A stretch of 64,000 nucleotides of DNA from NCBI GenBank assembly GCA_947496065.1, contig CANMBF010000010.1, positions 8,433 to 72,432 of the forward strand, in the 5' to 3' direction. Each line of letters starts with the position of its first letter. The first letter of the stretch is position 1. The notes under the pieces are model-generated. The model was not told where the DNA came from. It was given only the letters and a program-made list of their open reading frames with translations, and ran no database searches. A program made the translations under genes and the position numbers. Positions 20,440 through 52,220 of the stretch are shown here, piece by piece. The DNA comes from Bacteroidota bacterium. Its GTDB lineage: Bacteria; Bacteroidota; Bacteroidia; NS11-12g; UBA955.

Positions 20440-21216
20440 TTATGGCAACATATTCATCTGTGCTTTCAGAGAATCTTTCAAAGATTTGCTAAATATTTCG
20501 CGACCCATGCTAGGATTCTTGATTTTCATTTCTCTGAAATTGGTTTCATCTAAGTTGGTAAACGAATTGCTTTGATCGATGTCTAAGGCAGTTTTTACTA
20601 AGATGGTTTGGGTTTCTGGGTAATAAAAATAATCGAAGAACTGTTCGTTCTCGGGCGTTATTTGGGTAAAGTTTTTACCATCTAAATCGGAAACGTACAA
20701 CATAATGGCATCGGCCGAATTGTATTTTTTGTCCTTGTTAACATCGCGTTTCACGATTCTAAAAAAGATCATGGGGCGAGAAAATTCTTTGTGTATGGCA
20801 AAAGAGAGAATGTGCAAGGTGTCGGAAAAGAGGGGGCGCGACTGACCAGTACTCTTATCATAAAACAAAATATTGCGAATGTCGAAATCGTTTTCGCTGG
20901 TATTAATGTATTCATTGCTTGAGGAACGGTCGATTTTATCCTCGTACGAATTCTGTACAAAGGCAAGTGCGCCCTCTTTTACCGCGATAGTGGTAATTTT
21001 ATCGTGTCTATCTTCTGTAGGGGCTTCTTTAATGGCGGGATTGTAATTGGCGCCCACCGGGAAAATAATCAGGTTCGGAAAACCATAGTCAACTGGGTTG
21101 CCTATTACAAGCGACATATTTACTGGGGTTGCCGAGGTAGGTGGTGGAACTTTGGATTTGCGTTTACATGCGGTAAAAGCTGTTAAGGCCACTAAACTGA
21201 AGATGAAGTATTTCAT
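20440..21216 (-). CDS. Hypothetical lipoprotein
   Basis: MKYFIFSLVALTAFTAC lipobox. No recognisable domain. Confidence 0.5.
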   Translation of the reverse strand: MKYFIFSLVALTAFTACKRKSKVPPPTSATPVNMSLVIGNPVDYGFPNLIIFPVGANYNPAIKEAPTEDRHDKITTIAVKEGALAFVQNSYEDKIDRSSSNEYINTSENDFDIRNILFYDKSTGQSRPLFSDTLHILSFAIHKEFSRPMIFFRIVKRDVNKDKKYNSADAIMLYVSDLDGKNFTQITPENEQFFDYFYYPETQTILVKTALDIDQSNSFTNLDETNFREMKIKNPSMGREIFSKSLKDSLKAQMNMLP

Positions 21217-21222
21217 AAAAAT

Positions 21223-21230
21223 CAAATTTA
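21223..21230 (-). promoter_or_regulatory. -7 box upstream of the lipoprotein gene at 21216
   Basis: The plus strand reads CAAATTTA, 6 nt before the ATG. Confidence 0.4.
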
Positions 21231-21310
21231 TAAAGGCCAACCAAACCTCGTTATAAAAGTCGACTAAAGGTGATTTAACATTGTTAAATTATTTTTAAAA
21301 CTTTATTTTG

Positions 21311-21318
21311 TACTTTTG
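21311..21318 (+). promoter_or_regulatory. -7 box TACTTTTG upstream of the HipA-like/DUF3037 pair
   Basis: Perfect TAnnTTTG, 45 nt before ATG 21364. Confidence 0.45.
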
Positions 21319-21363: not shown

Positions 21364-22161
21364 ATGACTGCCAAAATTCCTCAACTCCGAACCGTGAATG
21401 TAACGCGTTACATTGCGCCTCTGCGCGAGGGAGGGTCGTTGCCAGCCTTGGCCGAAGCCGATGATGATTTTAAATACGTGTTAAAATTCAGAGGGTCGGG
21501 TCATGGTTCAAAGGCTTTAATTGCTGAATTGATAGGAGGCGAGTTGGCCCGTGTATTGGGTTTGCGCATCCCTGAGTTGGTGTTCGCCAATTTAGACGAA
21601 GCATTCGGTCAGGCCGAAGGCGATGAAGAAATACAAGATTTATTGAAGGCCAGTCAAGGTTTGAATTTGGCCTTGCATTTTTTAAGTGGTGCCATTACTT
21701 ACGATCCAGTAGTAATGACCATAGATGAAGACCAAGCCTCGGCGATTGTATGGCTCGATGCTTTTATTTTGAATGTCGATCGCACATTTAAAAACACCAA
21801 TATGCTGATATGGCAAAAGCAATTGTGGCTCATCGACCATGGGGCCAGTTTGTATTTTCACCATTCGTGGACCGATTGGGAAACACATGCCAAGAGCACA
21901 TTTAAATTGGTAAAAGACCATGTGTTATTGCCACAAGCCAAAACCATTGATGCCATCAATGCAAAGTACAAAGCCCTGTTAACAGACGATGTTTTAAAGG
22001 GCATCGTTGCATTAATCCCCGAAGCATGGTTGCATTGGGAAGGCAGTGATGAAACACCAGAGGATATACGAAACACTTATGCGAATTTTTTAATCATGCG
22101 ATTAAAGCATTCCGATTTATTCACAAAAGAAGCACAGCATGCAAGCCAAACACATCTATGA
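21364..22161 (+). CDS. HipA-like (PI3/4-kinase-fold) Ser/Thr kinase, short form
   Basis: Catalytic-loop-like NVDRTFKNTN, Mg-binding-like LIDHGAS, and an N-terminal glycine-rich KFRGSGHGSKA segment. 265 aa, so it lacks the long HipA N-terminal domains. Confidence 0.65.
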   Translation: MTAKIPQLRTVNVTRYIAPLREGGSLPALAEADDDFKYVLKFRGSGHGSKALIAELIGGELARVLGLRIPELVFANLDEAFGQAEGDEEIQDLLKASQGLNLALHFLSGAITYDPVVMTIDEDQASAIVWLDAFILNVDRTFKNTNMLIWQKQLWLIDHGASLYFHHSWTDWETHAKSTFKLVKDHVLLPQAKTIDAINAKYKALLTDDVLKGIVALIPEAWLHWEGSDETPEDIRNTYANFLIMRLKHSDLFTKEAQHASQTHL

Positions 22162-22522
22162 ATATGCGGTAATCCGCGTGTTGCCTGCGGTTGAGCGCGA
22201 GGAGTTCTTGAACATAGGACTGATATTGTTTTGCAAAAAAGCGAAATTTATTAAGGTGAATTTTGCTTTGAATGAAAATAAATTGAAAGTGTTTGCTCCG
22301 AAATTGGAGTTGGAGCAATTGCAAAAAAATCTAGAATCATTAGAAAAAATTGCGAATGGTGCCAAGGATGGAGGACCGATTGCATTATTGGATATTCCTT
22401 CGCGTTTTCGATGGTTAACTGCGGTGCGTAGTTCTTGCATACAGGTGTCACGCCCGCATCCGGGTTTGTGCGAAGACTTAGAAAAAACCGCTCAGCGTTT
22501 ATTCGAAGAAATGGTTTTGTAA
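22139..22522 (+). CDS. DUF3037-like protein
   Basis: The N-terminus YEYAVIRVLPAVEREEFLNIGLILFC matches my recollection of the DUF3037 signature. Overlaps the kinase gene by 23 nt. Confidence 0.55.
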   Translation: MQAKHIYEYAVIRVLPAVEREEFLNIGLILFCKKAKFIKVNFALNENKLKVFAPKLELEQLQKNLESLEKIANGAKDGGPIALLDIPSRFRWLTAVRSSCIQVSRPHPGLCEDLEKTAQRLFEEMVL

Positions 22523-22536
22523 CGATTTTCTTCTTT

Positions 22537-23062
22537 GCCACAGATTCACAGATTAAATTTGAATACATTAATACCACAGATTAAATTTTAATGCTTAATA
22601 TTTTACTCAAGTGCTTCTTGTCCCGTAGGGACAAAACATCTGTAAAGTACAACCTACCCAATGTTCAATATCCCGTAGGGATTATACTTATAACTAAGTT
22701 TTAACAAAAAGCGATAATAAGTTATCGGTCAGTCAACGAATACCACAAATGAAATCTAACGCTTAATCTTTCACAAAGCTTCCTCTTGTCCCGTAAAGAC
22801 AAAACATCTGTAAAGTGTCACCTATCCAAAGCTTCAATATCCAGTAGGGATTATACTTATAACTAAGTTTTAACAAAAAGCGATAATAAGTTATCGGTCA
22901 GTCAACGAATACCACAGATTAAATTTAACGCTTAAGTTTTCACAAAGCTTCCTCTTGTCCCGTAGGGACAAAACATCTGTAAAGTGTCACCTACTCACTG
23001 CCTCAATATCCCCTAGGGATTATACTTTTGACTAAGTATCACTAGTAAGCGTTAAAGCATGA
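22537..23062 (+). repeat. Family B element: head motif GCCACAGATTCACAGAT plus three tandem 169-bp units
   Basis: ACCACA(G/A)A unit starts at 22573, 22742 and 22911. Each unit carries TGTCCC-GTA-GGGACA and ATCCC-GTA-GGGAT hairpins 50 bp apart, plus CGATAA-TAAG-TTATCG. Confidence 0.9.
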
Positions 23063-23593
23063 AAAAGACTTAGAAAAAACAAACTACTAATAAAGTACAT
23101 AAGATCTCAGATGGATTTTACTTTTGTGTGTAACAGAGTAATGGTGCCTATGCTTTTTTCTTTTTTAAAAAAGTACTGAATAGTAAGCTTGTAATTGCAA
23201 GTATTAAAACAGGAGGGAAGATTATGAAAATTTCAATACTGTAAACAAGTCCTTTGAAGAGATATTTTATTCCTTTAATCAAGCAAGCAAGTTGCATTGC
23301 GTATGTCAACACATGGTTAAGTTTATAATAAATTTTATTGGTCTGCTCAATAGGGTTACTCTTCTTATTTTACCAATGAAAATTTTACTTCTCGAAAGCT
23401 ATCAGGATGGGCCCAATGGTTTGGTTGTATGTTGTAAATAATTTGTTGCGATGGAGCTTTGCCTTGCAAAGCTGACTCTCTTACTTTTTTGTTTGGACAA
23501 AAAAGTAACAAAAAAACCACCACGCATAGAAAATTTCAATCGGTCTTCTCGCGCTGGCTCGCCCTTCATCCCTGACCGAAAGAAATTTTTACG

Positions 23594-23611
23594 TCCCGAT
23601 TATTATCGGGA
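23594..23611. repeat. TCCCGAT-family hairpin
   Basis: TCCCGATTATTATCGGGA, inside an ORF-free palindrome cluster. Confidence 0.7.
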
Positions 23612-23943
23612 TGGACCCAGCCCGCACGTCTAGCGTTCAACTAATTTTGTGCGTTAGTGTAAGTTATTGGTTTTAGTCAATGATCTTTTTCCTTCGCTGA
23701 CTAAAATTAATTGATGTGTAATATAATCTTTACATCGGCATATTAATGAAGCCATATGATTAAAAAACATACCATTTGGTATTTATAAGAGAAACTAATG
23801 CAAGTTGTATAGAAACAAGAGGTAGATGAATTAGATACGACTTAATCGAAAAGGCTGTTGTCGTTAATAGGAATTGGTTTTTTGTGCAATATCTTAAAAG
23901 TTAATCTGTGTATCTGTGGCGTATTAACTAAACAAAGGGCCAC

Positions 23944-23969
23944 AAAAAAAACGCCCGAATAATCGGGCG
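23944..23969 (-). terminator. Rho-independent terminator downstream of the lipoprotein gene
   Basis: 7-bp GC stem CGCCCGA-ATAA-TCGGGCG followed on the minus strand by T8. Confidence 0.75.
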
Positions 23970-24109
23970 CTTCTTAATTTTATATGAAAAGAATACTACT
24001 TCTTTAAATTAGGTATGCTTGAAAGGTTTTTTGATAAAAAAGCTTTTTAGCATGCTTTATACCGAACCGTTTGCTATGCGACTTGTCGATTAGCAATCTG
24101 GTTTAGGTA

Positions 24110-25588
24110 TTAGTAAGCCAACTGTTGAGAGTTGAAATTAGCCCAAACATCTGACCAATCGTCTGAACCAAAAGCACCTTTGAAACTTGTAGTGTTGTTG
24201 AACCAAGTAGATAATTTAGCATCTGTAAATTTAGCACCACTTTGGGTTGCACCAGAGAACAAAGCCAAATTAGGGTTTTGAGGGTAAGTACCACCAGTAA
24301 CACCAGAAACTGTATTAAAGCCCATGATTAAAGTTGGCTCGATACCAGCATCAGCAAATGTTTTAGAGTAAACCAAAGTACCAGAAGTTGCTTGTGGATT
24401 GTTTAAAGTAAATACTGTGTTAGATTTAGTTGTTTTCCAGTAAGTAGCTACGTTAGCATCTGCTGCAGCACCATTGAAGAAAGAACGTTGTGATTTTCCT
24501 TTAACACCTGGGCAAACCAAGATATTATTATCTAATACAGCAGCACCACTATTGTAGTTAGCGATAGTGCCATCTAAATTTAAACCAATTGGGTAACCTA
24601 CTATTACAGAATTGAATAAAGATAATTCAGTATTTCTTCTTAGGTGTAAAGCGTGTAAGTAGTTACCGCTGAAAGAAGCTTTAGCTGAATCGTAAACTGG
24701 ACCTAATAAAGTTACGTTAGAGAATACAGCAGAAGTTTTAGGGGTTGAAGTTGAACCAGAAGCATCGTTATCAGATTCGAAACCGTTTGAACCAGATTGG
24801 TCAGCGTTGAAAGGGTCACGCATACCGATAGCGTATTGCACTTTACCACTGAAACCGAAGTCGGTATCGAAATCATCATCCCAACCACCGAAAGCGATTA
24901 AGTGTGCACAATTAACAGTACCACCGAACCACTCGTAAGAATCGTCACCACCGTAAGATATTTGAACGTAGTCGATAGTTGTACCATTACCAACTGCACC
25001 CATGGTTAAACCATTGGTTTCGTTGTTTGGAGTAATAGCGATACCAGCATATTCAATACGTACATATTTTAAAATACCACTGTTGTCATTGTCGTTAGCA
25101 GTGCTTTGGAAAGTACCATAAATAACTGCAGGTGTAATACCTTCGATAGATGGTGAGTTTTGGTTAATGTTAGCTTTACCCAACATAATAACACCACCCC
25201 AATCACCTTGCTCTCTAGCACCTCTGTCTTGGTTACTAGTAAAGATAATTGGACTAGAAGCAGTACCATCAGCAATGATTTTTCCACCTGGCTTAACTAC
25301 TAAAGTACCTTTAGAGCTTTTTTGACCAAATAATTTAGTACCTGCAGGGATGGTTAAAACTGAACCGCTTTCTATGAATACTTGACCAACTATTAAATAC
25401 TTTTTGGTAGCATCTAAAGATTGCGTTGGCAAAGAACCAATTAATTCTGTGTAGATAGCTGGCGGCTGAACTAAGATGGTATCACGAATGGTGATGTATT
25501 CTTTTTCAATCTTAGTCTTGGTGCAAGAAGAGAATGTGAATGCAGCAACTGATGCAATAATTCCCATTGTTAAAAATTTAAATTTCAT
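24110..25588 (-). CDS. Conserved hypothetical lipoprotein downstream of the TonB-dependent receptor (non-SusD)
   Basis: Lipobox FSSCTK. Motifs GDWGGVIMLG, YEWFGGT and FESDND. Codon usage looks strongly biased. Confidence 0.65.
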   Translation of the reverse strand: MKFKFLTMGIIASVAAFTFSSCTKTKIEKEYITIRDTILVQPPAIYTELIGSLPTQSLDATKKYLIVGQVFIESGSVLTIPAGTKLFGQKSSKGTLVVKPGGKIIADGTASSPIIFTSNQDRGAREQGDWGGVIMLGKANINQNSPSIEGITPAVIYGTFQSTANDNDNSGILKYVRIEYAGIAITPNNETNGLTMGAVGNGTTIDYVQISYGGDDSYEWFGGTVNCAHLIAFGGWDDDFDTDFGFSGKVQYAIGMRDPFNADQSGSNGFESDNDASGSTSTPKTSAVFSNVTLLGPVYDSAKASFSGNYLHALHLRRNTELSLFNSVIVGYPIGLNLDGTIANYNSGAAVLDNNILVCPGVKGKSQRSFFNGAAADANVATYWKTTKSNTVFTLNNPQATSGTLVYSKTFADAGIEPTLIMGFNTVSGVTGGTYPQNPNLALFSGATQSGAKFTDAKLSTWFNNTTSFKGAFGSDDWSDVWANFNSQQLAY

Positions 25589-49094: not shown

Positions 49095-49317
49095 TTTTAT
49101 GAGACAGGCTAAAAGTATAATCCCTAAGGGATATATAAGCAGGGGTTAGTTTTTACTTACAGTTATTAAATCCCTACGGGATAAGGATACAATTGTTGAT
49201 TTTTGAGTTGCATAAATTAAATCCCTACTTAATGGTGTAGGCTAAAAGTTAATTTTTAGTAGTAAAATTAAATCTGAGAATTTAATGTATTCAATTCTCT
49301 TCTGTGAATCTGTGGCT
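49095..49317 (-). repeat. Family B element, inverted orientation, ending with the head motif next to the Usp gene stop
   Basis: GCTAAAAGTATAATCCCTAAGGGAT...ATCCCTACGGGAT...CTGTGAATCTGTGGC. This is the reverse complement of the 22.5-kb units. Confidence 0.85.
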
Positions 49318-51609: not shown

Positions 51610-51665
51610 GCCACAGATTCACAGATTGAAATTAGCACCAATAGATTTCACAAATTTTAATACTT
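51610..51665 (+). repeat. Family B head fragment, starting 7 nt after the hemW stop
   Basis: GCCACAGATTCACAGATTGAAATT... is homologous to 22537-22600. Confidence 0.8.
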
Positions 51666-51734
51666 AAATTTGTTAAGAAAGATGTTTGTCTTTATTTTTT
51701 TTTGACTTGAAGCCAATTAGTTTTTTATCACACA

Positions 51735-51945
51735 AGCTAAAAGTATAATCCCTACGGGATATTGAGGCAGTGGTTAGTTTTTACTTACAGATATTATATC
51801 CCTACGGGATAAAGCGACACATTAGTTATTATTAGGTTTACATCTATTAAATCCCTAACGGATAATGTATGCAATAAGGTACTTTTATACATTAAATACA
51901 ATCTGAGAAATGATTGTATTCAATACTCTTCTGTGAATCTGTGGC
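51735..51945 (-). repeat. Family B element, inverted orientation (copy 1 of 2 upstream of 52264)
   Basis: It begins GCTAAAAGTATAATCCCTACGGGATA and ends CTGTGAATCTGTGGC. Confidence 0.85.
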
Positions 51946-52009
51946 TAATAAAGACTCAATCCTGTTTTGTTCAGATATTTATCGGCCCTTGGGTTTGTTA
52001 GTATTTAAC

Positions 52010-52220
52010 GTAGGCTAAAAGTATAATCCCTACGGGATATTAAGGCAGTGGTTAGTTTTTACTTACAGATATTAAATCCCTACGGGATATAGAAGCAGGG
52101 GTTAGTTTTTACTTACAGATATTAAATCCCTACGGTATAATATATACCATTAGTTTATTTTCAGCATTAAAATTCAATCTGAGAAATAATGTATTCAATT
52201 CTCTTCTGTGAATCTGTGGC
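52010..52220 (-). repeat. Family B element, inverted orientation (copy 2), with three 50-bp sub-repeats
   Basis: TCCCTACGG hairpin cores at 52027, 52077 and 52127. It ends CTGTGAATCTGTGGC, 43 nt from the amidase stop. Confidence 0.85.

Follow-up and report, generated by a model that had tools for sequence, protein, structure and literature searches.

A short-partner HipA_2 kinase and DUF3037 gene pair in a Bacteroidota genome, a distant relative of the phage defense system HipAD

Gene pairs encoding a kinase of the Pfam family HipA_2 and a protein of the family DUF3037 have only just joined the validated anti-phage systems, and the experiments were all conducted on versions with a long partner protein that are carried by mobile elements. 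Here, a related pair was analyzed in a stretch of 64,000 nucleotides from a member of the Bacteroidota (assembly GCA_947496065.1, contig CANMBF010000010.1, positions 8,433 to 72,432), referred to below as the window. The first gene (21364 to 22161, + strand), identified as an open reading frame (ORF) with a match to PF20613, encodes a stand-alone, protein-kinase-like enzyme of 265 aa, a short-class "HipA." The second (22139 to 22522, + strand) encodes a single-domain DUF3037 protein of 127 aa, the short-class counterpart of the N-terminal domain of HipD and a putative kinase-binding regulator. The pairing of HipA_2 with DUF3037 was known already; its short-partner, non-mobile, core-like form is new.

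Among the published systems, the combination of HipA_2 and DUF3037 corresponds to the PADLOC candidate system PDC-M66 (A and B), and many DUF3037 neighborhoods carry this label (PMC12548924). The Retron-Sda1 operon holds a HipA-like kinase and a DUF3037 protein that act as a stand-alone defense against phage Bas51; deletion of the kinase abolished defense, and deletion of DUF3037 was toxic (PMC12548924). This operon opens with an XRE-type helix-turn-helix (HTH) gene directly 5′ of the kinase, the deletion of which left defense unaffected, and the clades associated with a reverse transcriptase (RT) numbered two, one of them in Bacteroidota (PMC12548924). A further system, DS-6, was validated by DefensePredictor and given the name HipAD, following Brenes and Laub 2025; catalytic mutation of its kinase abolishes defense, AlphaFold 3 predicted an A-B complex with an interface predicted template modeling score of 0.76 to 0.79 and a contact between B and DNA, and the C-terminal part of HipD was labeled DUF1829 by DefensePredictor, again with DNA contact predicted (PMC13092281). 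The statement in the initial annotation of this DNA that no function had been published for the pairing is therefore out of date (PMC12548924, PMC13092281), and its guess at a two-gene toxin-antitoxin (TA) or defense-like module fits what has been published for the homologues.

The window pair resembled HipAD of Escherichia coli prophages, such as PhiR5_1, in its two Pfam families, in having the kinase first and the partner overlapping it, and in having no HipB-like partner. The catalytic motifs of the two kinases were identical, and DUF3037 was homologous to HipD over residues 4 to 128, as confirmed by an hhalign probability of 97.6% for the DUF3037 profile against this part of HipD. The two systems differed in sequence, with 29% identity between the kinases (E value of 7e-16) and 23% between the partners, the latter in a BLASTP alignment limited to HipD residues 7 to 125, and in the C-terminal ∼150 residues that only HipD possesses. 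They also differed in location: HipAD occupies the lambdoid moron slot between cI and kil, where the annotated genes of phage PhiR5_1 (PV340545.1) encode a HipA of 249 aa and a HipD of 275 aa, and it was found on 47 viral contigs versus 0 for the class to which the window pair belongs. The window pair is hence described here as a distant relative of HipAD that belongs to a separate, short architectural class and is unlike every experimentally validated example.

The kinase matched HipA_2 (PF20613) at positions 5 to 235 of 240 with an E value of 2.4e-19 and a score of 70 bits against a cutoff of 27, and HipA_2 was its only match among the HipA families of Pfam, with no match to HipA_C or to the HipA N-terminal domain. 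The HipA protein of PhiR5_1 scored 258 bits against the same family, and the window kinase is therefore a divergent HipA_2 member. Matches to PADLOC PDC-M66A (E value of 5.8e-25) and phrog_3162 (E value of 1.2e-31) were also obtained. K41 (codon 21484 to 21486, + strand), the putative ATP-anchoring lysine within YV(L/V)KF, was conserved without exception among 42 short-class kinases and across a five-sequence cross-class alignment. The alignments also located the catalytic loop, N137-V-D139-R140-T-F-K-N144-T-N146 (21772 to 21801, + strand), and the metal-binding, DFG-equivalent motif I157-D158-H159 (21832 to 21840, + strand), which was invariant in all alignments. Together, K41, D139, R140, N144, N146, and I157-D158-H159 were invariant from Flavobacterium to Streptomyces and in phage PhiR5_1, Clostridium, and Shinella, and with these residues intact the kinase is predicted to be catalytically competent. 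In the Gly-rich loop R21-E-G-G-S25-L-P27 (21424 to 21444, + strand), all seven residues were invariant in the short class, and alignments of the short and long classes kept Ser or Thr at position 25. This loop, to judge from HipA and HipT, may bind ATP and may include an autophosphorylation site.

An AlphaFold 2 model of the kinase (predicted local distance difference test score [pLDDT] of 89.7, predicted template modeling score [pTM] of 0.90) showed a compact protein-kinase-like fold. Its top match among solved structures was CtkA of Helicobacter pylori (Foldseek probability of 1.00, template modeling score [TM] of 0.55), and other matches included the lipid kinase PI4KIIα (TM of 0.51), the atypical kinase ADCK3, and Fam20C. 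HipA structures in the PDB were absent from the top 50 fold matches, and neither they nor any other solved structure was matched by the kinase family profile at E values up to 10. Direct comparison of this profile with E. coli HipA gave an hhalign probability of 2.7%, no detectable match. The description of the kinase as HipA-like thus held for the Pfam name, the motifs, and the resemblance in fold, while membership in the HipA family itself was not demonstrable. Many HipA_2 kinases are named "aminotransferase class I and II" in protein databases, which looks like a propagated annotation error.

The partner matched DUF3037 (PF11236) along the entire family model (positions 1 to 118 of 118, E value of 1.2e-44), so that both family assignments made in the initial annotation proved right when profile searches were run. 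Longer models were covered in part, with phrog_5137 matched at positions 3 to 129 of 279 only. The window pair matched both PDC-M66 models, but that of PDC-M66B, 281 positions long, was covered only from 3 to 128 (E value of 1.4e-13); PDC-M66 is a bioinformatic candidate class in which short and long forms are not separated. The invariant or near-invariant polar residues of the short-class DUF3037 proteins were Y9, R13, P16, R20, E22, N25, R89, W92, S98, Q102, and H107. The first of these lie near the N terminus, where the motif YxxxRxxPxxExEEFxNxG is common to short-class DUF3037 and HipD and, judged from its conservation, is the part most naturally expected to bind the kinase. In the C-terminal part, the motif ERFxWLTAxRSxxIQxSxxHxG is one that the short class largely has to itself.

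The DUF3037 protein was modeled with AlphaFold 2 as an α/β domain (pLDDT of 96.3, pTM of 0.88). No significant match to a fold in the PDB was obtained (best E value of 0.45, TM of at most 0.30), nor did the family profile find anything relevant among PDB sequences, and neither search revealed a recognizable enzyme fold. The domain therefore appears, on the strength of the model, to have a confidently predicted fold without a solved relative. Likewise, no DNA-binding family or fold was detected in the 127-aa protein by Pfam, PDB fold, or PDB profile searches, although the novel fold could itself bind DNA. Several DUF3037 proteins in JGI data are named "predicted patatin/cPLA2 family phospholipase," another label that looks like a propagated annotation error.

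Comparison of related loci separated two classes. In the short class, the kinases were 41 to 98% identical to the window kinase, the partners measured 126 to 131 aa, and the genes lay in ordinary chromosomal contexts; examples were found in Parabacteroides (between argH and gltA), Chondrinema, Streptomyces, Nonomuraea, and Micromonospora. In the long class, the kinases were 22 to 29% identical to the window kinase, the partners measured 266 to 281 aa, and the context was that of mobile elements or defense, as in phage PhiR5_1, in a Clostridium botulinum prophage-plasmid beside a phage tail gene and MazF, and in Shinella beside a restriction-type helicase-like ORF. HipD and the partners from Shinella and C. 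botulinum had lengths of 266 to 281 aa, and the window partner lacks their C-terminal ∼150 residues. No Pfam family was recognized in the C-terminal halves of these three proteins, even at E values up to 1. Of 1,259 DUF3037 clusters defined at 50% identity, the nearest 150, which reach as low as 33% identity, were dominated by the short stand-alone form, which is therefore not an artefact of truncation. A metagenomic locus (L138:4217-5867, contig Ga0494732_0005340) encodes a 288-aa DUF3037 protein, P0335, with an N-terminal domain 33% identical to the window partner. The gene for P0335 overlaps that of a preceding HipA_2 kinase by 20 nt, Pfam recognized only the DUF3037 domain when the whole protein was scanned, and P0335 may be intermediate between the two classes.

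The kinase and DUF3037 genes of the window overlap by 23 nt (22139 to 22161, + strand), the end of the kinase gene being the start of the DUF3037 gene. Both ORFs and their overlap were exactly as first annotated, as was the order, kinase first and small partner second, and the motifs quoted at that time were all present: NVDRTFKNTN at kinase residues 137 to 146, LIDHGAS at 156 to 162, and YEYAVIRVLPAVEREEFLNIGLILFC at partner residues 7 to 32. An overlap of this kind suggests translational coupling of the kinase and DUF3037. Matches to the kinase pattern were found in at least 455 species-representative genomes, and 80 genome loci were retrieved. DUF3037 was directly downstream of the kinase in 80/80 of these loci, overlapping it in nearly all, and a count of adjacency, which the initial annotation had proposed, gave a pair that is never separated in this set. 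The distance between the tblastn alignments of the two genes ranged from −19 to +2 nt, i.e., overlap or abutment, and both genes were matched over their full or near-full length in every locus. Outside the lineage of the window, the pairing was seen in all five short-class genera named above, with a 4-nt overlap in Micromonospora and Streptomyces and also in phage PhiR5_1. Pairing of the kinase with DUF3037 far exceeds chance, and when loci from several lineages were compared no third gene was conserved near the pair across lineages; the kinase and DUF3037 therefore form an autonomous unit. Two small, adjacent, codirectional genes that overlap and are conserved in relatives also represent a generic trait of type II TA systems.

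By published description, the Retron-Sda1 pair is like the window pair in combining a stand-alone kinase with DUF3037, and its genetics fit a toxin (the kinase) with a neutralizer (DUF3037); it is unlike the window pair in its upstream XRE-type HTH gene, its adjacent retron RT and noncoding RNA (ncRNA), and a DUF3037 protein whose C-terminal region resembles a DNA-binding protein of retrons (PMC12548924). No HTH gene, retron RT, or ncRNA of the Sda1 kind was present at the window locus. In HipBST, a kinase without the HipA N-terminal subdomain is neutralized by a small protein encoded by an adjacent gene (Gerdes preprint 10.1101/2021.04.14.439929), which is reminiscent of the window pair, but the gene order is reversed, HipB is present, and the kinase belongs to another Pfam family. 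The small proteins differ as well, DUF3037 not being HipS-like: its model found no fold match in the PDB even though HipS and HipA structures are deposited there. The possibility that DUF3037 is a HipS-like split-off of the HipA N-terminal subdomain was rejected, since the confident model had no PDB match and the DUF3037 profile did not match E. coli HipA, including its N terminus (hhalign probability of 0.2%).

E. coli K-12 hipBA shares with the window a two-gene layout and a Ser/Thr-kinase-type enzyme of the protein-kinase-like superfamily with a catalytic D...N and a metal-binding D; it differs in the length of HipA (440 aa versus 265 aa), in the presence of HipB, and in gene order, the kinase being first in the window. 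CtkA (PDB 3AKK), the top structural match, is likewise a compact, stand-alone bacterial Ser/Thr kinase, but its identity to the window kinase was 10 to 12% over the structural alignment and it was undetectable by sequence profile. According to its PDB title, CtkA is a secreted proinflammatory effector, and it is not paired with DUF3037.

With about even confidence, the locus can be read as a two-gene kinase/regulator module, a short and chromosomally fixed variant of the HipAD family in which the kinase is restrained by its cotranslated partner. A single transcript from a promoter just upstream would yield the compact, catalytically competent kinase and, via the 23-nt overlap, the DUF3037 protein in step with it. 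DUF3037 would then bind the kinase and keep it inactive, probably through the N-terminal motif that it has in common with HipD. Were the partner to be lost, titrated, or displaced, for instance under stress, when translation is blocked, or during phage infection, the free kinase would phosphorylate an essential cellular target and growth would halt. The homology, the architecture, the intact catalytic residues, the constant pairing, and the mode of evolution were established in this analysis; binding and inhibition by DUF3037, the trigger for release and the target of the kinase, and any role against phages are proposed by analogy with the published homologues. If the pair is indeed such a kinase-toxin switch, the DUF3037 domain alone would be enough to control the kinase, and the locus would be a rare case in which entire genera have a module of the defense or TA type fixed in their core genome.

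Several results weigh against this restrained-kinase reading. Every validated system has a long partner (266 to 288 aa), and toxicity and defense were shown for long-class homologues only. The polar motif that is invariant in the short class (R89, W92, S98, Q102, and H107) is largely missing from HipD, which hints at an added or different function. Furthermore, the partner lacks the C-terminal, proposed DNA-binding domain of the long class, so that transcriptional autoregulation is probably absent; with no DNA-binding domain detected in its sequence, the autoregulation of a classic TA system would be missing. The ∼15 kb around the pair also contained neither defense genes nor integrases or transposases.

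The same holds for the way in which the pair is inherited. In Flavobacterium, the gene order is YebC, GcvT, NAD(P)HX dehydratase, kinase, and DUF3037, the dehydratase gene being the one directly upstream of the kinase on the same strand in 53 loci, and this synteny with gcvT and nnrD extends across the genus. Mean pairwise identity among 34 species was 85.7% for the kinase and 77.6% for DUF3037, with NAD(P)HX dehydratase (72.8%), GcvT (91.0%), and YebC (93.3%) as yardsticks. Divergence of the kinase correlated with that of these housekeeping neighbors (Spearman coefficients of 0.63 to 0.82) at least as well as the neighbors did with each other (0.50 to 0.61). For 107 unsaturated Flavobacterium pairs, the ratio of nonsynonymous to synonymous substitution rates (dN/dS) was 0.067 for the kinase and 0.075 for DUF3037, compared with 0.055 for GcvT, 0.10 for NAD(P)HX dehydratase, and 0.019 for YebC, unlike typical TA or defense modules; in the window's own lineage (versus the sister genomes L001 and L002), both genes had values of 0.03 to 0.05. 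Among 2.9 million viral contigs, no relatives were found with the window proteins or with a short-class kinase profile, whereas phage HipD, used as a positive control in the same scan, gave the 47 contigs mentioned above. PhiR5_1 was the sole match in a GenBank collection of phages. Relatives were carried by 9/72,556 plasmids, all of them large replicons and 8/9 typed as non-mobilizable.

The short class, which also occurs in many Actinomycetota, is thus vertically inherited under housekeeping-level constraint in Bacteroidota and Actinomycetota. Chromosomal TA systems have been reported to show a heterogeneous distribution and frequent pseudogenization (PMC13617665), and the pattern of the short class is the opposite of this patchy, decaying distribution. 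The window locus stands for a much larger short-partner class, present in the at least 455 species genomes noted above, that is core-gene-like and was never found on viral contigs. The contrast between a phage-borne defense system and a slow-evolving, widely conserved cellular counterpart was unexpected.

These features suit a housekeeping signaling pair, a possibility that we entertain with some doubt. The kinase would be a constitutive Ser/Thr kinase and DUF3037 its substrate, activator, or specificity subunit, in an arrangement resembling partner switching that controls a core process, and phage HipAD would be a derived, weaponized offshoot with a gained DNA-binding domain. In addition to the housekeeping evolutionary rates of both genes, their vertical inheritance at a syntenic locus, and the broad distribution, this is favored by the absence from viral contigs, the native base composition, the lack of defense neighbors, and a partner without a DNA-binding domain. 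Ser98, Thr94, His107, and Trp92, invariant in the short class, could serve as a phospho-acceptor or functional site. On the other hand, the sole experimental data for the family are kinase-dependent defense and toxicity on loss of DUF3037 (PMC12548924, PMC13092281), the N-terminal motif common with HipD suggests the same kinase-binding role, and there is no conserved functional neighbor to suggest a pathway. TA systems with high conservation exist too, one example being a HipBST system described as conserved across Legionella species (PMC10653801).

Tentatively, then, the short pair could be neither an immune nor an addiction module but an ancient Ser/Thr kinase of the housekeeping type, conserved across Bacteroidota and Actinomycetota and accompanied by its own regulatory or substrate subunit with a fold so far unseen in the PDB; phage HipAD would have been derived from this pair by mobile-element capture and fusion of a DNA-binding domain to the partner. 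If so, a core signaling module would be documented as the evolutionary source of an anti-phage TA system. More generally, if the locus is not a kinase-toxin switch, it would represent an unstudied, widely conserved bacterial Ser/Thr-kinase signaling pair and the cellular ancestor of a phage defense system. Both outcomes can be tested cheaply in the genetically tractable Flavobacterium johnsoniae or in Bacteroides.

Bona fide anti-phage abortive infection by a core-resident system is unlikely. Here the short DUF3037 would sense a conserved phage cue and release the kinase, and the strong constraint would stem from conservation of the interface with a trigger or a target; this overlaps the restrained-kinase reading and differs from it only in taking defense as the selected function. 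Defense genes are normally patchy in distribution, horizontally transferred, and fast-evolving, and none of these traits was seen for the short class. The TA decay reported in PMC13617665 also stands against the 80/80 pairs that retain both genes at near-full length. In its favor are the matches to the PDC-M66 models, the activity of homologues against Bas51 and other phages (PMC12548924, PMC13092281), and the emphasis in the DefensePredictor report on the many defense systems that sit outside defense islands (PMC13092281).

A metabolic or small-molecule kinase that phosphorylates a lipid or metabolite, with DUF3037 serving that pathway as a carrier or an accessory enzyme, is very unlikely: the fold matches to PI4KIIα, ADCK3, and Fam20C, the lack of a detectable sequence link between the kinase profile and E. 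coli HipA, and metabolic neighbors (the dehydratase in the 53 Flavobacterium loci, an α-hydroxy-acid oxidase in Chondrinema, and phosphopantetheinyl transferase/polyketide synthase/ccrA in Streptomyces) are in line with it, but the neighbor is different in each lineage, CtkA, a protein Ser/Thr kinase, gave the top fold match, DUF3037 has no recognizable enzyme fold, and the homologous HipAD behaves as a toxin-like kinase (PMC12548924, PMC13092281). A functional link to NAD(P)HX dehydratase was likewise rejected, as the linkage was judged to be genus-level synteny because the neighbor differs in every other lineage.

Upstream of the pair, a promoter −7 box of the Bacteroidota type (TACTTTTG, consensus TAnnTTTG) is located at 21311 to 21318 (+ strand), 45 nt 5′ of the kinase start codon. 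The motif was not enriched in the window, with 98 occurrences observed versus 97.9 expected; its count being at chance level, its presence alone carries no meaning, and the box was rejected as stand-alone evidence. It was accepted only after a test of positional conservation, in which TAnnTTTG was found 30 to 80 nt 5′ of the kinase ATG in 37/68 related loci, compared with 4% in shuffled upstream sequence over the same range. A further 25 matches were located 10 to 29 nt 5′ of the ATG in related loci. The earlier proposal that the pair has its own −7 box thus stood as regards the sequence and its conserved position, whereas the motif as such is not distinctive in this DNA. These data suggest that the box at 21311 to 21318 acts as a promoter.

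Flavobacterium loci, including L003 to L027, have a conserved leader about 45 nt 5′ of the kinase ATG, between the promoter box and the ATG. It consists of TTTGTAAGTTTG, about 6 nt, and then AAGCAAAATAGCTTTATCCAATTCGATT with a small AAGC..GCTT palindrome, and could be a candidate operator or an element of the 5′ untranslated region. The window leader differs in sequence, with a CTGAT..ATCAG palindrome at the equivalent place. The 123-nt gap upstream of the kinase contained no ORF of ≥20 aa, and the nearby small ORFs matched no Pfam family; therefore, no HipB-like HTH gene is present, as had been noted initially.

On its upstream side, the pair is flanked by a divergent lipoprotein-like ORF of 266 aa (20440 to 21240, − strand), followed by the gene for arginyl-tRNA synthetase (ArgRS), and on the other side by a lipoprotein-like ORF of 492 aa (24110 to 25588, − strand). 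Neither flanking protein matched a Pfam family at E values up to 1e-5. The 492-aa protein adjoins a TonB-dependent receptor in L001, where it is 92% identical with a dN/dS of 0.17, and it resembles a SusD-like or surface-lipoprotein partner of an unassigned family. The sole PADLOC match nearby was a generic OmpA/MotB domain, and the GC content of the pair, both overall and at third codon positions (GC3), matched that of argS and other cytoplasmic genes. Membership in a defense island or mobile element was rejected given this native composition, the lack of an integrase, and neighbors such as ArgRS, type IX secretion system cargo proteins, a TonB-dependent receptor, and Lnt.

As the initial annotation had described, the pair is followed directly by a repeat-filled region of about 1.6 kb (22523 to 24109, 1,587 nt), which is ORF-poor. 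The further suggestion that this marks accessory DNA was refuted by the housekeeping neighbors, the local composition, the constraint on the genes, and their vertical inheritance. Taken as a whole, the initial annotation was partly supported, being right on the families and on the analogy with TA and defense systems and wrong on novelty and accessory DNA. No intrinsic terminator was found after the DUF3037 stop codon before 23952 to 23969, where the first strong + strand hairpin with a T-run is located (region searched, 22523 to 23969), so that transcripts of the pair may extend into the repeats. A structured RNA was rejected, as an Rfam scan of the region gave nothing near any gathering score. 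Three tandem units of 169 nt (22570 to 23060), each with two short CCCGTAGGG-type hairpins, lie within a 33-nt inverted repeat that brackets the repeats (arms 22537 to 22569 and 23888 to 23920, 85% complementary), and the region looks like a miniature inverted-repeat transposable element (MITE) or a satellite element. It is kept at the same position in the sister genomes L001 and L002 with 83 to 86% identity. The 33-nt motif from the termini (GCCACAGATTCACAGATTAAATTT...) and a portion of the 169-nt unit are found again at ∼49113 to 49316, 51610 to 51765, and 51930 to 52220, which indicates an intergenic repeat family that is dispersed in this genome and includes the repeats downstream of the pair.

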